Positions 16,121 through 28,370 of a DNA stretch of 64,000 nucleotides are shown piece by piece; the first letter of the stretch is position 1; every line of letters begins with the position of its first letter. The notes below the pieces were generated by a model that ran no database searches, was not told the origin of the DNA, and was given only the letters and a program-made list of their open reading frames with translations. Location: sequence record KP869102; one strand, given 5' to 3'. The position numbers were made by a program, and so were the translations under genes. The DNA comes from Escherichia coli O157 typing phage 4.

Positions 16121-16130
16121 NNNNNNNNNN
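16121..16130. other. assembly gap (N10)
   Basis: Run of 10 N. Confidence 0.95.
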
Positions 16131-16440: not shown

Positions 16441-16450
16441 NNNNNNNNNN
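16441..16450. other. assembly gap (N10)
   Basis: Run of 10 N. Confidence 0.95.
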
Positions 16451-21057: not shown

Positions 21058-21268
21058 AGTGTTTTCCTCTCTTCTGGTTGTTGTGTGGGCACTTTTGCCC
21101 CTTCAAGATAAATGTTACCCCACCCCATGGCAGATGTCAACGGTTTTTATAGTTCTTATATGACAGGCAGGCCCGGTGATTGTCTCCCCCCGTCGCCAGG
21201 TGCCTGCCGTGAAACAAGTATAACAAAAAACAGGACCATTGCAAGCCCTGTTTTGTAGTTTATAAATA

Positions 21269-21460
21269 TTATATTTTTTCGCCTATGTAGTCCGGTCGGT
21301 TTTTCTCTGTCATGCGCTTTAGCAATTCTTGCATGTTGCTTATGGCTTGTAGTGTATCCCCTTCCAGGCTTGAATCGACATAATCAGGATCGTCTATGAC
21401 CTTTCTATGATTATGATAACGCAGTACCGCCAATACCTTTCTGACTTGTTCGATATTCAT
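21269..21460 (-). CDS. hypothetical protein
   Basis: ORF track 63 aa. Confidence 0.45.
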   Translation of the reverse strand: MNIEQVRKVLAVLRYHNHRKVIDDPDYVDSSLEGDTLQAISNMQELLKRMTEKNRPDYIGEKI

Positions 21461-21472
21461 TTTTACCGCTCT

Positions 21473-21607
21473 TTAAAACAAGGTGCCAACCGTTTCCAAT
21501 AGATCACTGACTGCCAGGACAATACCGATCAGCACATATCTAACCATAAGGGGAAAGAGCGCCAATATTGCCACCACAATCCCCAAGGTGATAATTATCT
21601 TTCTCAT
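21473..21607 (-). CDS. hypothetical 44-aa membrane peptide
   Basis: Manual ORF MRKIIITLGIVVAILALFPLMVRYVLIGIVLAVSDLLETVGTLF; below the track length cutoff; abuts the upstream gene. Confidence 0.35.
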   Translation of the reverse strand: MRKIIITLGIVVAILALFPLMVRYVLIGIVLAVSDLLETVGTLF

Positions 21608-21609
21608 GG

Positions 21610-21903
21610 TTAACGGTTCACGTAAGTTTTCCCGTTCACGGTTATGGGCAGATCCTCCAGGTCTGGATCTTCCTTAAGGTCGCGAGCAAGCTCACCGCAC
21701 CGGATACCCTCGAATCCGTAGTACTCTGTTGTGCCGTCCTTAAAAGTTTTAGCGGCAAGGCATAAGCGATAAGTAACCCCGATTTGATTGACGGCATGAA
21801 TATCCGTTAGATTAACCTCTTTTGCCAGCTCTTTAGCCATTACAGGCGCATTAAGTCCAACAACCAGGGCAACCACTGCGATCATCTTTTTCATTGTGTC
21901 CAT
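21610..21903 (-). CDS. hypothetical secreted protein (N-terminal signal peptide)
   Basis: 97 aa; N-terminus MKKMIAVVALVVGLNAPVMA. Confidence 0.55.
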   Translation of the reverse strand: MDTMKKMIAVVALVVGLNAPVMAKELAKEVNLTDIHAVNQIGVTYRLCLAAKTFKDGTTEYYGFEGIRCGELARDLKEDPDLEDLPITVNGKTYVNR

Positions 21904-21985
21904 CCTCTTTCTGCTACGTTTAAGGCGGCGGTAACCGCCTGTTTATGCTTTGTTGGTTAATTTTCGGGTATAGGTATAAATTAAA

Positions 21986-22201
21986 CTATGCTGTACGCTC
22001 AACTATAACAACGGCTTGAGGGATCTCACCTTCAACCACTATCAAGGCTTTTTTCTGCGTGATAGATATCTTTACCCGCTTCAGCGTGGCGGTAAAATCT
22101 TTCATTTCGTCACGTGGTGTTTTAGTGCAATACCAGATCTCAGGCTTGCCGATCTGTAAGTTGCGTAAAAATTCTGTTTTGCCTGTTTTGTTAGTGATCA
22201 T
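21986..22201 (-). CDS. hypothetical protein
   Basis: ORF track 71 aa. Confidence 0.45.
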   Translation of the reverse strand: MITNKTGKTEFLRNLQIGKPEIWYCTKTPRDEMKDFTATLKRVKISITQKKALIVVEGEIPQAVVIVERTA

Positions 22202-22210
22202 TTGGCAACC

Positions 22211-22315
22211 TCACCCGATACCGTTGGAAGACAAGATCGCATTAGCCATGGTTGCAATCAGGCCAATACCCAGGGCAATAACCAAGATCACTGCATCGAT
22301 TAATTTCTGTTTCAT
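22211..22315 (-). CDS. hypothetical 34-aa membrane peptide
   Basis: Manual ORF MKQKLIDAVILVIALGIGLIATMANAILSSNGIG; weak RBS. Confidence 0.35.
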   Translation of the reverse strand: MKQKLIDAVILVIALGIGLIATMANAILSSNGIG

Positions 22316-22392
22316 GGTGTTTATTCTCTTCTGTTAGTAACCTTATTCATGGGGCCGCTACCACAGCCCCAAGGTAAGGCAGCTATGTGCTT

Positions 22393-22638
22393 TTAGTGTT
22401 TCATTCCAACCATCGCGGCACGGATCGCCGTAGTGCTGTACTTGAAGCCGTCCGGGGTCTTATCTTGTCCGGTTAGCTCCAGAAAAAGCATCATATCCCG
22501 CGCCGCATCATTACGATTAGCATTGGCGTTAATAAAGCCTTGGGCCAACCGGTACAATGACTCATCGTTATTAATCCAAAGGCTTACATTCCAATGAGTT
22601 TTGTTTTTGTAACCGTTATAACCTTTATTGCTTTTCAT
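22393..22638 (-). CDS. hypothetical protein
   Basis: ORF track 81 aa. Confidence 0.5.
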   Translation of the reverse strand: MKSNKGYNGYKNKTHWNVSLWINNDESLYRLAQGFINANANRNDAARDMMLFLELTGQDKTPDGFKYSTTAIRAAMVGMKH

Positions 22639-22729
22639 GGTGTTTACCTCTTCTTTGTTCCAGGTGGCGGATCATTCTACCACCTTATGTATTATGCTTT
22701 GTTAGATGGTTGTTTGTTGTCAAACTATT

Positions 22730-22909
22730 TTACCGATAATCATCATATGCTTTATTTACCTGGCGAATATAACATTCAAAAGCCAAATCAATAGATTTAT
22801 ATTCACGGATATACTCACCATAGGAAACCACATACATTTCTATAGCTTCCTCATATGCGAGGAGAATAGAATCTAAGCCTACGATCTCAGTCTTTGCAAT
22901 AATAGCCAT
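22730..22909 (-). CDS. hypothetical 59-aa protein
   Basis: Manual ORF MAIIAKTEIVGLDSILLAYEEAIEMYVV... with RBS AAGAGGA upstream. Confidence 0.45.
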   Translation of the reverse strand: MAIIAKTEIVGLDSILLAYEEAIEMYVVSYGEYIREYKSIDLAFECYIRQVNKAYDDYR

Positions 22910-22985
22910 GATTTTTTATCCTCTTTGTGGTTGGTGGGGTTCGTTGCCCCCTTTGATTTATATATTACAGTCTTATATGGTCATG

Positions 22986-23219
22986 TCAACTATTTTCAAA
23001 AAATTTTTCTGCTGTGATATTCTTCCCGGTAGGGTTCGCTACTTTCAAAATTTTATCATGCACTGGACGCCCAAAAGAATAAGCGCCGTACACAGTAAAC
23101 CAATAATCGCCGTCAGGTTGTACTATTACTGCCGCATATGGTACGCCTTTTTCGTTTTTGCTGACAAAATAGATCACGTTGCCATTAATAGCCTCGGCGC
23201 GTTTAATTTGTTCCATCAT
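22986..23219 (-). CDS. hypothetical protein
   Basis: ORF track 77 aa. Confidence 0.5.
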   Translation of the reverse strand: MMEQIKRAEAINGNVIYFVSKNEKGVPYAAVIVQPDGDYWFTVYGAYSFGRPVHDKILKVANPTGKNITAEKFFENS

Positions 23220-23275
23220 GATGATTTGCCTCTCTTTATTTTCATAATTGGGGGGCCTTTTCGGCCCCGCCAGGT

Positions 23276-23626
23276 TTATTTATTGATAGCGTGCAGCGGG
23301 AAAGGTACGCCAGGTTGATAGATAACCTTTACAACCTCATCAGGACAAAAGAAGTTGCAGAACTCACCGCAATAGGCCTCATCCTCTTTCAACTCTTCAT
23401 CAACATACTCAAAAAAGTAGTCGATGCTTGGATAATCTTGACCAGGGTTATAATCAACCATAGTGAGGACCAGTTCAAGATCATTGCGGATGATATGCAT
23501 ACCAGCTTTTAAATACTTCGCTTCCATTTTTACTACATCGCCAGCGGTAACAATAGCCATGGTTTTAACTCCTGTTTCTGTTAATGATTGGAGGCATAAC
23601 CCCCCTCGACAACTCTTATTATCCAT
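23276..23626 (-). CDS. hypothetical protein
   Basis: ORF track 116 aa. Confidence 0.5.
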   Translation of the reverse strand: MDNKSCRGGLCLQSLTETGVKTMAIVTAGDVVKMEAKYLKAGMHIIRNDLELVLTMVDYNPGQDYPSIDYFFEYVDEELKEDEAYCGEFCNFFCPDEVVKVIYQPGVPFPLHAINK

Positions 23627-23785
23627 ATTGTAGGGCTTGATGCAAGTACTTCTTTAAAAAATTTTTAAGTGCCTTGGAGGCCGCTGTAACGCCAAAATAA
23701 TAAAGGCCATGCAACCGCATAGCCTTTATGTGATTATATCGCTGCAGGCCCTGCTAGGGGCCTTATTTTGCATCATTTGCCGGAA

Positions 23786-24094
23786 CTATACAGAGAAAAC
23801 ATCGTTCACAATAGCGATCACAATGCCGCCCACCTTGTCACGGTCAACAATGCACAAATCACCATAGATCATGTGGTAGTCTGGATGATCTTTCACGGAA
23901 TAGTCAATGAGCGTTTTCTTGTCGTCCAGCTTTGTAACTTCCATTCTCATAACGATATGAGAATCATCAAAGGCATTATTCCGAAAAGTCATAGCCTGAC
24001 CACCAGGGCACCCAGTGATCTCCACTTCCACACCGTCTACGATCTGACCATCAAAGAAATAAAGATTATTAGCCAGGATAAACATGTTTATCAC
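23786..24094 (-). CDS. hypothetical protein
   Basis: ORF track 102 aa. Confidence 0.5.
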   Translation of the reverse strand: MINMFILANNLYFFDGQIVDGVEVEITGCPGGQAMTFRNNAFDDSHIVMRMEVTKLDDKKTLIDYSVKDHPDYHMIYGDLCIVDRDKVGGIVIAIVNDVFSV

Positions 24095-24177
24095 TCCTTG
24101 TTAACTGCGTGTTATTTTACCACGATTAAAATTTACTTTACTGATGGCCCTGGCGTCAAGGCCATCTAAAAATAAAT

Positions 24178-24378
24178 TTACAGGCCTACAATCTCTTTGA
24201 TTCGTTTAACTGCTGCCTCAGCGCCTTGGGGGTAGAAATTATGGTAACCGATCACGCGAGTGATACTAATCGCAGTTTGATGATCTTCATAATAGCCCTT
24301 GAAGATTTCTTGACCGTCAATCAGCACGGCAATTTTTTCTTCTTTTTTGAAGTTAATAACGCGGATATTGTTGCTCAT
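24178..24378 (-). CDS. hypothetical protein
   Basis: ORF track 66 aa. Confidence 0.45.
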   Translation of the reverse strand: MSNNIRVINFKKEEKIAVLIDGQEIFKGYYEDHQTAISITRVIGYHNFYPQGAEAAVKRIKEIVGL

Positions 24379-24493
24379 TTTGTTTCTCCTTTCTGGTTTT
24401 TGTGTTGGTGGGGATTAGCTCCCCGTTGATTATTATTATCCATATTTCGGACCGGATTGCAACACCCCGGAAGAAAAATTTTTTGAAAAAGTT

Positions 24494-24517
24494 AGGCCCC
24501 CAGGGATCGGGGGCCGT
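24494..24517 (-). terminator. intrinsic terminator
   Basis: Hairpin GGCCCCC-AGGGATC-GGGGGCC preceded on plus strand by an A-rich run. Confidence 0.5.
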
Positions 24518-24519
24518 TA

Positions 24520-24639
24520 TCAGTTACTTACAGCGATAAAATACATCCCTACGCCTAACAATATTTCAAGGGCGATGATCTCAAGCCATACCATAACCCG
24601 GCGCACCTTATCGGTGCGGGGCTTATCCTTGGTTGTCAT
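24520..24639 (-). CDS. hypothetical 39-aa membrane peptide
   Basis: Manual ORF MTTKDKPRTDKVRRVMVWLEIIALEILLGVGMYFIAVSN; strong RBS AGGGGGAGA. Confidence 0.45.
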   Translation of the reverse strand: MTTKDKPRTDKVRRVMVWLEIIALEILLGVGMYFIAVSN

Positions 24640-24881
24640 CGTCTCCCCCTTTCATCCTGGTAGTAGTGACGTGGTTTACAATGGCCCCCAGGAGTACCAT
24701 CACCACGCACATCACAAGAAAAATTATCTCTGTCGTTGTTCGATCCATTGTTATAAAATTCCTTAAGATCAGGCCTGAAAATAAAGCGTTCGTTATTGAA
24801 TCCATCACGCCAGGCGGCTGGCTTCAAATCTTCATCAAAGGGATTAATTAACGTGGTATTATTTAAACGGCTGGCCCACAT
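24636..24881 (-). CDS. hypothetical low-complexity protein
   Basis: ATG at 24881 with GAGAGGAA RBS; preferred over the RBS-less overlapping frame 24623-24808. Confidence 0.4.
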   Translation of the reverse strand: MWASRLNNTTLINPFDEDLKPAAWRDGFNNERFIFRPDLKEFYNNGSNNDRDNFSCDVRGDGTPGGHCKPRHYYQDERGRR

Positions 24882-25263
24882 ATTTTCTATTCCTCTCAAA
24901 TAGGCGATCCGCCTCAGTTAAACAAATCTCATGGGCGTGATCTCTGGTTTTAGCTTCATCGAAAACCTGTTGTGCAAGGCTGCAGCGTAGGGAGACTGGA
25001 AGATCACTATAATAGGCGTTGACAAATGTTTGCGCGTCATACAGGTCGGAAAATACTTTACCCTTTCTATTATCGCCTTTGTCAACAATTGCAAGGATAA
25101 CAAGTACAATAGTTGCAACCACCCCCAGGAAAATAGATATAATAAACCATAAAAAGGCGGATCTACCCATCTTGCCAGCGATCCAGGCGTTAAACAAGGC
25201 AACTAATACGGCCAAAATAATAAATTCCATTCTATGTACCTCTTTTGCAGTTCTGTTTAACAA
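24859..25263 (-). CDS. hypothetical membrane protein
   Basis: 134 aa; two hydrophobic helices (FIILAVLVALFNAWIAG and FLWFIISIFLGVVATIVLVILAIV). Confidence 0.5.
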   Translation of the reverse strand: MLNRTAKEVHRMEFIILAVLVALFNAWIAGKMGRSAFLWFIISIFLGVVATIVLVILAIVDKGDNRKGKVFSDLYDAQTFVNAYYSDLPVSLRCSLAQQVFDEAKTRDHAHEICLTEADRLFERNRKYVGQPFK

Positions 25264-25294
25264 TAAGGCGGCAAATATGCCGCCTGTTACCTGA

Positions 25295-25675
25295 TTAAAA
25301 ATTATCGCCGTAAATCTTTCCGCTTTCTGCCCACACCACCACGCGGGGCATACTATCCCACACGTCTTGTTTTAGATTGAGCGCGTGCAATTCTTCGGTG
25401 GTGCCCATACCAGGCACGGGCTGATTGTATACTGCAAAACGACCACCTGCATAATCATAGGCCAGGGTTAAATCACACTGAATCATCTTTTTGATCATGG
25501 CGTTGAGCATAGCGTTAGCCGCATACTGGTCACGTTTTAAAGGCAACTCTTTGATTAGTTTGCGATAGTTTTCAATGTGATCGCACACTGTTTCACGTGG
25601 AAGATCTTTCATATCCTCGCGAAAGGTAACCAGGTTAAACATAACGGTGTCAATAGCTTTAGTAGTGTTTTTCAT
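25295..25675 (-). CDS. hypothetical protein
   Basis: ORF track 126 aa. Confidence 0.5.
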   Translation of the reverse strand: MKNTTKAIDTVMFNLVTFREDMKDLPRETVCDHIENYRKLIKELPLKRDQYAANAMLNAMIKKMIQCDLTLAYDYAGGRFAVYNQPVPGMGTTEELHALNLKQDVWDSMPRVVVWAESGKIYGDNF

Positions 25676-25766
25676 AATGTTTTCCTCTTTGTTTTGTGTG
25701 GGGCAAACGTCTTGCCCCCCCTTGAGTTTTAATATAGCAAGTTTTTAGATTATTGCAACACTTTAT

Positions 25767-26295: not shown

Positions 26296-26305
26296 NNNNN
26301 NNNNN
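26296..26305. other. assembly gap (N10)
   Basis: Run of 10 N. Confidence 0.95.
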
Positions 26306-26448
26306 CTTCTTCTCAAGTTCTGCACGGCGGTCTCGTGCTTCTTTACGGGTTTTGAAATGTTCGTAGATGAAAATCATCTTGGTCTCCTTATTTGATGTTA
26401 TTCTTTGTATCGATCAGTTCACGGTATTCAATCATAGCAGGAGTGTCC
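26306..26448. repeat. exact 143-bp copy of 15977-16119 (contig-end overlap)
   Basis: Identical sequence by eye; contains the start of the 14842-16047 gene and the stop of the rIIA-like gene. Confidence 0.85.
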
Positions 26449-28370
26449 CGATATTTCAAGCCCACATGCTTCAAAAGTGGATATTTCTTTTCCAATCTTG
26501 CAATATAGGCCTTCCCGCACTTAACCCGGTTGGCGATTAAGATTTTGGCACGATGATTTAGCTCACTGTGCTTCCACGCGGTGTTACCTTCCCACTTGTG
26601 GAAATGTGGCCGATAATTTCCAAAATCCTGCATGGGGATAATTTTCCCTAATTGTCTATACAGGCTGTCATATGAAGTTTCATTTGCTGCGCGAGTCAGT
26701 AAGAATTTCCAGGCGTCCTCTTTCAACAAATGTTCCACATTTTTCTCTGTAACATACTGGCAATCAGGATTAGTCCAAAGCAGACGGGATTCTGATACCA
26801 GGTACAGGTCTTCCCCTTCAGGAATCTGGAGTGCCGCACGCACACGGTCATAATTTTGCTGGTAGATGTTACTCAGCTGTCCCAGCCAACAACTTCCACG
26901 TTGGATATCACCCTCATAAGGAATGCAGTGCTTAATCTTCTTGAACTCTGCCTTAGTAATACGTTCACGGCGGAAGTAACCATCCTTCTCAAGCTTTTTA
27001 ACCCAATAACCTGGCTCGTAATGAGTTTTTGTTTCACCTTTCTTCGCAGGTCGGCGAGGGAGCTCTGATAACAATTTGACCGTATCTGCAAAGAACGGGT
27101 GGTGTGCCGCTTCTTTAAACTCTTCCACCAGATCCGTGTTACGGCAATAGAAAACGTTGCGTCCGGTGATCTCGCTTAAGTAGTTACATTTATTTCGGTT
27201 ATATTTGCCGTCTCCGTCGTTAAATACAAGGTATACACCTCGTAAGAACTCCGACTTTCCGTAACGAGCATAGCCTATGCGGCCTTTATTTAAGCCGCCA
27301 GCGAAAATTTCACAATCGCCTAAGTCGCCAAGCCCTGTTTCTTCCCAACGGTTCCACATAAAGTTTTTGCCGAAGATGTGTCCGAACACCCCACTATTCT
27401 TCATCATTTCACGTGCTTCTGCTGAGGTTTTTGCCGTCTCCAGTTCTGCAACAACTTCTGCCCCGCGAAGACGTATACCTTCTTTAACAAAGGCCTCCAG
27501 GCGATCCTGGAATCCACCGTCGTCATGGCCCTCTATGGTCCATTCACGCCCAGGGTTAATATTGCAATCCCCGATAGGAATTTCCACGCAGATTGCAGGG
27601 TAATCGGTCAATGTCTCCAGGAACTTAGAGCGGTAAGGTTGGTGACCCATCACAACACGGCTCTCATCAGAACTGGTATAACCTTTCAGGATGGTCATTT
27701 TCCAGCCATCCTTCTCGTAATGATACTGTGCCTCAACCTTGTCACCTTCTAACATCTTACTGGTCATGGGATCGGTGACGGTGAACGGAAACTTCGCATA
27801 GCGTAAGCACGATGCAATAGCAGTGCGATATTTCAGGACATGCTCTTTCTTAACATGAAACTGAACTTTTACCCCGTTGTGCTCTTCAGTCTTCCGCTCG
27901 CGGATCTTGGTAACGTTTGGGATACCCTGATCCAAGAACAATAGATATGTGCTTTCAACACCATTGTGCACACTGATAACATCGAAAGTGTCCACCATGC
28001 TGAACGGAGCCTTTGAACCAACACCTTTATTACCTACCAGAGCATTACTGTTGCGCTTGGTTGACTCTCCAAGGTTCATGAACGTGTTGCGGACCATCTC
28101 TTCTGACATGCCCAATCCAACGTCCTGCACAAAGAAGTATGGTTCAAGGTCTGTAGGAGAGTGAATGATGATCGGTACATCACCCCGTCCAGACTCAACA
28201 TGGGAGTCTACAGCGTTGAAGATTGGTTCACGGCAGCTTGCCAGCACCTTATCTTCGTAAATCCCTTTAATAATTAGCCCAAAAGTCTCTTTGTTCAGAG
28301 AAATTGAGCCCCTGGTGACCTCCATATTTCCGGTTAGCACTGCTTTAGTTTCATTACTGTTTACAATCAT
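26388..28370 (-). CDS. rIIA: rIIA-like protein with N-terminal GHKL-type ATPase domain
   Basis: 660 aa; GHKL N-box REPIFNAVDSH, G1 box QDVGLGMS, G2 box GNKGVGSKA. Confidence 0.7.
   Translation of the reverse strand: MIVNSNETKAVLTGNMEVTRGSISLNKETFGLIIKGIYEDKVLASCREPIFNAVDSHVESGRGDVPIIIHSPTDLEPYFFVQDVGLGMSEEMVRNTFMNLGESTKRNSNALVGNKGVGSKAPFSMVDTFDVISVHNGVESTYLLFLDQGIPNVTKIRERKTEEHNGVKVQFHVKKEHVLKYRTAIASCLRYAKFPFTVTDPMTSKMLEGDKVEAQYHYEKDGWKMTILKGYTSSDESRVVMGHQPYRSKFLETLTDYPAICVEIPIGDCNINPGREWTIEGHDDGGFQDRLEAFVKEGIRLRGAEVVAELETAKTSAEAREMMKNSGVFGHIFGKNFMWNRWEETGLGDLGDCEIFAGGLNKGRIGYARYGKSEFLRGVYLVFNDGDGKYNRNKCNYLSEITGRNVFYCRNTDLVEEFKEAAHHPFFADTVKLLSELPRRPAKKGETKTHYEPGYWVKKLEKDGYFRRERITKAEFKKIKHCIPYEGDIQRGSCWLGQLSNIYQQNYDRVRAALQIPEGEDLYLVSESRLLWTNPDCQYVTEKNVEHLLKEDAWKFLLTRAANETSYDSLYRQLGKIIPMQDFGNYRPHFHKWEGNTAWKHSELNHRAKILIANRVKCGKAYIARLEKKYPLLKHVGLKYRDTPAMIEYRELIDTKNNIK

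Follow-up and report, generated by a model that had tools for sequence, protein, structure and literature searches.

Bacteriophage T4 achieves superinfection exclusion with two proteins, Imm, an early small inner-membrane protein, and Sp (Spackle), a small Sec-exported periplasmic protein. In bacteria, single-pass inner-membrane regulators of 30-50 amino acids (aa) such as AcrZ, MgrB and MgtS, each with a cytoplasmic N-terminus, bind a larger membrane protein. At the level of genome organisation, promoter-early stem-loop (PeSL) cassettes flank ORFans in T4-type phages and mediate their shuffling (Arbiol et al. 2010, PMC2839356). Here we describe a locus in Escherichia coli O157 typing phage 4 (sequence record KP869102) that invites comparison with all three. 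The window analysed is a single stretch of 64,000 nucleotides (nt), within which positions 21473-25263 encode three hydrophobic micropeptides of 44, 34 and 39 aa, a signal-peptide protein and a two-helix membrane protein, interleaved with small soluble open reading frames (ORFs). Judged by their conservation, the micropeptide ORFs (ORF160, ORF163 and ORF170) are genuine protein-coding genes. With their larger neighbours they form three separate co-translated modules and no single system. Our favoured reading, with a probability of about 0.6, is that these are genuine accessory genes of a variable leftward arm, whose dispensable, cassette-exchanged products would act on the cell envelope through partner binding.

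The minus strand is the coding strand for every gene of the region. ORF160 occupies 21473-21607 (MRKIIITLGIVVAILALFPLMVRYVLIGIVLAVSDLLETVGTLF), ORF163 22211-22315 (a single-helix peptide, MKQKLIDAVILVIALGIGLIATMANAILSSNGIG) and ORF170 24520-24639. A first-pass annotation of the window had picked out all three from the sequence, correctly as to interval and length, as well as their interleaving with soluble neighbours. Its description of them as unannotated was wrong. The interval 21200-25700 has 286 related phage records and shows 100% identity to Escherichia phage JES2013 (Vequintavirus, an rV5-like myovirus), whose GenBank record carries fifteen genes here, ORF159 to ORF173, each labelled hypothetical protein and including the three micropeptides. 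Each micropeptide also matches its own PHROG, phrog_16005 for ORF160, phrog_14631 for ORF163 and phrog_13629 for ORF170. These three families and PHROGs 13090 and 9845, matched by ORF172 and ORF161, are all of unknown function, and the five matches span residues 1-44 of 44, 1-34 of 34, 1-39 of 39, 1-123 of 123 and 1-94 of 94, with E-values of 2e-22 to 3e-84. Of the 27 annotated related records listed, 15 lack a feature over ORF160. An earlier scan of the rV5 proteome reported transmembrane domains in 15 proteins (PMC3606486). The membrane and secreted ORFs of the region are already catalogued hypothetical proteins and an ordinary set of phage ORFans.

Evidence for coding comes from a comparison set of 21 related loci, of which Vequintavirus-type phages supplied 17 and Phapecoctavirus four, with dN/dS (omega) estimated by the pooled Nei-Gojobori method and hydropathy taken as the Kyte-Doolittle maximum over 19 residues. 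Homologues are present in 18 (ORF160), 20 (ORF163) and 16 (ORF170) of these loci, every one with an ATG start, an intact frame and a stable length (43 or 44 aa for ORF160, 34 aa for ORF163 and 39 or 40 aa for ORF170), and the length differences that do occur are in-frame only. The omega values are 0.36 for ORF160, 0.34 for ORF163 and 0.17 for ORF170, against 0.04-0.21 for clearly coding neighbours. ORF160 is represented by 16 distinct sequences in which 80 of 132 sites vary with no stop codon or frameshift. All micropeptide alleles retain their hydrophobic character, with T at the second position in 38-68% of codons, and the hydropathy maxima reach 2.94 for ORF160, 2.55 for ORF163, 2.15 for ORF170 and 3.14 for ORF172, in which two stretches are hydrophobic. 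Lack of conservation in related phages, which the first-pass annotation had named as grounds for rejecting the micropeptides, does not apply because the frames are kept in the related loci. Its assignment of a membrane or secreted nature to the products is also upheld by hydropathy, by the signal-peptide-like N-terminus of ORF161 and by the helices of the AlphaFold models, and remains at the level of prediction. The term cluster holds in part. Hydrophobic proteins are mildly enriched, with a hydrophobic segment in 5 of the 14 genes ORF159-172 versus 3 of the 41 other genes of the arm (Fisher p=0.02), and the genes fall into three modules rather than one cluster.

The first module consists of ORF161, ORF160 and ORF159. 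ORF161 (21610-21894, minus strand, ATG at 21894) encodes the 94-aa protein in which the first-pass annotation had seen a signal peptide. Its leader, MKKMIAVVALVVGLNAPVMA followed by KE, is typical of export, and ORF161 is predicted from this N-terminus to be exported by Sec to the periplasm. In the AlphaFold model the predicted local distance difference test score (pLDDT) is below 50 at residues 1-19, a disordered leader, and about 90 at residues 21-94, where the mature fold is modelled as three beta strands, a helix and one more strand. The protein has two invariant Cys residues and an omega of 0.21. Fold searches with ORF161 returned no informative or significant match, and a wider homologue search found unnamed proteins of related phages only, with the family confined to rV5-like and phAPEC8-like phages. 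The ATG of ORF160 sits 2 nt past the ORF161 stop codon (TAAccATG). Nearly every Vequintavirus locus has this junction, as do two of the four from Phapecoctavirus. The remaining two show a 4-nt overlap of the genes, and a gap of 5 nt separates them in one divergent locus. A tblastn search with ORF160 gave hits at 59-100% identity in 164 phage records, Phapecoctavirus among them. ORF160 evolves faster than ORF161 and carries one of two alternative C-terminal tails. Frameshifting as the origin of these tails was ruled out, since they are in-frame replacements between alleles. In the phages Murica, isim and MiataMamis ORF160 is cleanly deleted, and ORF159 then starts 16 nt after ORF161. ORF159 itself (21269-21460, minus strand) encodes a soluble protein of 63 aa that closes the ORF161-160-159 unit, with its Shine-Dalgarno site just past the ORF160 stop codon and a terminator-like hairpin with a T run on its 3' side (21227-21254, minus strand).

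Two other arrangements of ORF161 and ORF160 were considered and rejected. As ORF160 is always in the +2 frame, a programmed frameshift might have fused the two into one anchored protein, a possibility ruled out by a frame that is open for only 7 codons upstream in many loci; no conserved slippery sequence was evident in the sequences inspected. A spanin pair was likewise rejected, as the ORF161 leader ends in NAPVMA ahead of KE without a lipobox Cys and the 44-aa ORF160 product has no soluble domain.

In the second module ORF163 precedes ORF162 (21986-22201, minus strand), which encodes a soluble protein of 71 aa. The two genes are spaced by 9-10 nt in all 20 loci that have them, and the Shine-Dalgarno site of ORF162 lies within the last codons and stop of ORF163. 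ORF163 exists as two alleles with a mutual identity of only 53-56%, both hydrophobic. ORF162 is strongly conserved (omega 0.08), and its wider homologues are unnamed proteins from related phages only. A small membrane ORF is missing upstream of more distant ORF162 homologues, such as that of Cronobacter phage CR9. Ahead of ORF163, a GGGGC...GCCCC stem-loop without a T run lies at 22351-22370 (minus strand), between ORF164 and ORF163.

These gene junctions invite the explanation that the micropeptide ORFs are leaders or spacers that deliver ribosomes downstream, from ORF163 to ORF162 and from ORF160 to ORF159, or that they are merely tolerated. Their stop codons do fall inside the Shine-Dalgarno site of the following gene or beside it, the clean deletion of ORF160 re-couples ORF159 to ORF161, and omega for ORF160 and ORF163 is above that of the neighbours. 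However, omega is still well under 1, the hydrophobic helices survive both 40-50% amino-acid divergence and allele replacement, and the many variable sites of ORF160 have been accommodated without a broken frame. The helix of ORF170 is nearly invariant although a terminator, not a gene, comes next. A role purely in ribosome delivery, or none at all, is improbable on this evidence.

The third module, ORF172, ORF171 and ORF170, provides the clearest candidate for a partnership between a micropeptide and a larger membrane protein. ORF172 (24859-25230, minus strand) is the two-helix membrane protein of the first-pass annotation, which was right about the helices and gave a length of 134 aa. The most likely start is the ATG at 25230, preceded by AAAGAGG, for a protein of 123 aa; most records annotate the corresponding 372 nt, and the TTG at 25263 that would start the 134-aa form directly abuts a hairpin at 25285-25266. 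AlphaFold models a membrane hairpin (helices 2-20 and 25-55) and a C-terminal three-helix domain (residues 63-117) with a mean pLDDT of 72. ORF172 is highly constrained (omega 0.06) and its family is tiny by a word-indexed search and by a full HMMER search, the latter with only 8 hits among 1.84 billion representative proteins. Beyond close relatives only a generic N-terminal two-helix motif recurs, on unrelated C-termini. ORF172 and ORF170 are each found in 118 phage records with an identical breakdown by organism and host, and those of ORF172 are all Vequintavirus. In the variant alleles P0006 and P0007 the C-terminal domain of ORF172 is kept and the two-helix hairpin is replaced by a single helix; synteny is kept, with the ORF173 homologue on one side and that of ORF169 on the other. 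ORF170 is absent in 6 of 6 loci with a single-helix ORF172, and ORF173, ORF171 and ORF169 are still in place. There is thus modest evidence, from gene content, that the 39-aa ORF170 product works with the two-helix module of ORF172.

ORF170 has a basic N-terminus followed by a nearly invariant helix with two Glu residues (MVWLEIIALEILLGVGMYFIAVSN). It may be started either through an ATGA overlap with ORF171 or from GGGGGAG as a Shine-Dalgarno site. On its 3' side a strong terminator-like hairpin (GGCCCCCGATCCCTGGGGGCC) with a T run lies at 24495-24515 (minus strand) and is an annotated terminator in phage Murica. ORF171 (24636-24881, minus strand) encodes a hydrophilic, low-complexity product of 81 aa and shares 23 nt with ORF172 and 4 nt with ORF170. 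The signature of coding is weak, with an omega of 0.50 and variation nearly equal across codon positions, and ORF171 is cut to 73 aa in six loci; by these measures it either evolves rapidly or barely qualifies as a gene. Upstream of the module, the hairpin at 25266-25285 (minus strand, between ORF173 and ORF172) has a weak T run and is also an annotated terminator in Murica. As no promoter lies between this hairpin and ORF172, transcription of ORF172-170 probably comes from the ORF173 promoter by read-through. ORF173 itself (25295-25675) has homologues labelled 'membrane protein' in some records (navn_146 and naam_119), yet its hydropathy maximum is 0.72 and it has no hydrophobic segment; the label was apparently inherited in error.

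The small size of ORF172, its two predicted membrane helices and its charged C-terminal part recall the class II (two-helix) holins, and several records of the BASEL collection label its homologue 'putative holin'. On that basis ORF172 might be an inner-membrane holin and ORF170, which co-varies with its membrane module, an antiholin or regulator of lysis timing, with ORF171 as part of the lysis machinery. Holin genes can sit apart from the lysin gene, as in T4, and the location of ORF172 away from a lysin gene could be accommodated in this way. The differences are more telling. Searches of Pfam, NCBIfam and PHROGs connected ORF172 to no holin family, and it is found among ORFans behind sigma-70-type promoters, an early-type context. 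Instead of a short basic tail, the model shows a folded C-terminal domain of three helices and about 65 aa, near neutral with 12 acidic and 12 basic residues over positions 50-123, and the variant alleles place this domain on a single-helix anchor. In rV5 the lysin is gp89 and the sole holin candidate gp129, both encoded elsewhere (PMC3606486). The 'putative holin' label is not supported, and we regard a lysis function for the module as quite unlikely.

Pfam, NCBIfam and PADLOC gave no significant family match for any membrane protein of the region, PDB sequence searches found nothing, fold searches gave no significant match, and a literature search turned up neither functional nor transcriptomic work on these genes. 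The proposal of the first-pass annotation, that such proteins may serve superinfection exclusion, defence evasion or lysis timing, is plausible in general terms. In the model that we favour, the genes would be expressed early in infection and the micropeptides would sit in the inner membrane of the host, the N-terminus facing the cytoplasm as the positive-inside rule suggests. They would act by binding larger partners rather than as enzymes. The partners may be neighbours translated along with them, for which ORF170 and the two-helix module of ORF172 make the clearest case, host envelope proteins, or both. The outcome would be an envelope altered in the phage's favour, and for the ORF161/ORF160 pair a block to a second infecting phage is the leading guess. 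The genes would be dispensable and swapped among phages as cassettes. An accessory and mosaic character is apparent from the clean deletions of ORF160, the alternative alleles of ORF160 and ORF163 and the whole-gene insertions and deletions between relatives.

Several observations weigh against this model or parts of it. The topology is read from just two sources, hydropathy and the positive-inside rule, and the C-terminal domain of ORF172 could be placed on either side of the membrane. The co-variation of ORF170 with ORF172 comes from just two independent variant alleles. The ORF161/ORF160 pair is conserved yet not obligate, since three phages lose ORF160 and keep ORF161. C-terminal conservation in ORF163 and ORF160 may partly stem from the ribosome-binding site of the next gene and not from the peptide, and for ORF163 a part can be assigned in this way because its last codons carry the ORF162 Shine-Dalgarno site. 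Nor does anything point specifically to superinfection exclusion. A bolder form of the model would make periplasmic ORF161 and membrane-bound ORF160 a two-part exclusion or envelope-protection device common to Vequintavirus and Phapecoctavirus and unrelated to T4 Imm/Sp in sequence and fold, and would have ORF170 join the two-helix module of ORF172 in a membrane complex as an obligate subunit; taken jointly, these proposals are doubtful. That the peptides are instead membrane-damaging toxins of type I toxin-like character, for early host shutdown or killing, is suggested by a size and hydrophobicity generally like those of small membrane toxins and by the toxicity of many early phage products once cloned, and is also improbable given the lack of Hok/Gef, Ldr, TisB or any further toxin family among Pfam and NCBIfam matches, the harm that early membrane depolarisation would do to a phage needing an energised host, and a tight coupling to soluble or periplasmic partners that suggests a regulatory role.

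Measured against the described systems, the envelope-acting model finds partial precedents. The predicted membrane protein ORF160 and the predicted exported protein ORF161 present the same cast as T4 Imm and Sp. The resemblance does not extend to sequence or fold. Neither ORF160 nor ORF161 hits the Imm family (Pfam Imm_superinfect) or shows homology to Sp in sequence, and the modelled fold of ORF161 is not similar to that of Spackle. The imm and sp genes of T4 are not a coupled pair, unlike ORF161/ORF160, and ORF160 is dispensable in some phages. With AcrZ, MgrB and MgtS the micropeptides share their size and, by analogy, a proposed topology and a proposed mode of action. They differ in having no sequence similarity to these regulators and in being phage-encoded without a known target.

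The closest precedent for the organisation of the region is the PeSL cassette of the T4-type hyperplastic regions. Most intergenic regions here share one order, found upstream of ORF173, 169, 167, 165, 164 and 158, in which a sigma-70-like promoter is followed a few bases on by a GGGG...CCCC-type stem-loop, a CA-rich spacer, AAAGAGGA and the ATG. Examples before small ORFans on the minus strand between 20500 and 25800 lie at 25758-25690, 24462-24385, 22989-22915, about 22722-22645 and 21140-21060. Upstream of ORF173, at 25731-25758 (minus strand), the promoter reads TTGCAA-16-TATATT with TG before the -10 box and is followed by a GGGGCAAG...TTTGCCCC stem-loop. The leader of ORF161 has a stem-loop and a Shine-Dalgarno site, with the promoter assignable only as a -10-like box: a CATAAA box precedes the G/C stem-loop at 21923-21940 (minus strand) and AAAGAGGA follows it. 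No Rfam family was matched across 16-27 kb. The arrangement known from T4-type phages likewise places a G/C stem-loop and a Shine-Dalgarno site, together with a sigma-70-like promoter, before ORFans of a variable region, and here too close relatives differ by whole-gene insertions, deletions and replacements at cassette boundaries. The whole-gene insertions and deletions between relatives fall between cassettes and are consistent with PeSL-like shuffling. The cassettes differ from their T4-type counterparts in belonging to an rV5-like lineage. In the clear cases the stem-loop also lies downstream of the -10 box, possibly placing it in the transcript leader.

The same promoters bear on the timing of expression. 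Sigma-70-type promoters are predicted here and annotated in the same arm of the rV5 record, and a proposed leftward transcription unit of rV5 genes 10-1-238-164 takes in the genes of the region (PMC3606486). It is reasonable to regard the arm holding the micropeptides as an early region, as the first-pass annotation had done.

Neighbouring genes carry further traces of gene gain and loss. ORF164 (22393-22638) matches Pfam DUF7249 (E=7e-13), and its protein is almost invariant across 12 loci yet absent from rV5 and several others, for which reason it appears to be a recently spread cassette. The 225-nt gap between ORF168 and ORF167 (23561-23785) contains two hairpins and promoter-like boxes. 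Many relatives have an extra 351-nt gene in this gap (MaxTheCat bas57_0117 and Murica gp116 among them), which makes a deletion scar likely, and a 33-aa ORF within the gap (23619-23720) is probably spurious. In rV5 (NC_011041, 5645-5946, homologous to window positions 23786-24085) the counterpart of ORF168 is annotated as two ORFs, ORF177 and ORF178, and the alignment covers residues 30-98 only; a frameshift or sequencing error in the type genome is possible.

Some observations concern the records themselves. The window contains runs of 10 N at 16121-16130, 16441-16450 and 26296-26305. To the left of the third run the sequence is identical to JES2013 (its ORF174). To the right it matches, at approximately 98.7%, a different part of the rV5-like genomes that is not collinear with the JES2013 record, and a 660-aa ORF lies directly beside the run (26388-28370, minus strand). 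The N runs and the loss of JES2013 collinearity at the third make the window look like joined contigs or a scaffold rather than an unbroken piece of that record. Among database entries, 17 to 22 'Campylobacter phage' records of the MG0656xx series (host C. jejuni) are near-identical to rV5-like coliphage genomes, which suggests that they are mislabelled or contaminated.

Our analysis of the micropeptide region reveals no new mechanism. What it contributes is a list of real small ORFs, their grouping into modules, the natural ORF160 deletions of phages such as Murica and isim, and a testable pairing of ORF170 with ORF172. The presence of PeSL-like cassettes in a non-T4 lineage is a further gain. 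The rV5-like and phAPEC8-like phages are widely used as candidates for therapy and biocontrol, yet a function is known for only a minority of their early genes. Among these genes, those for small membrane proteins are a plausible place for exclusion or anti-defence functions.

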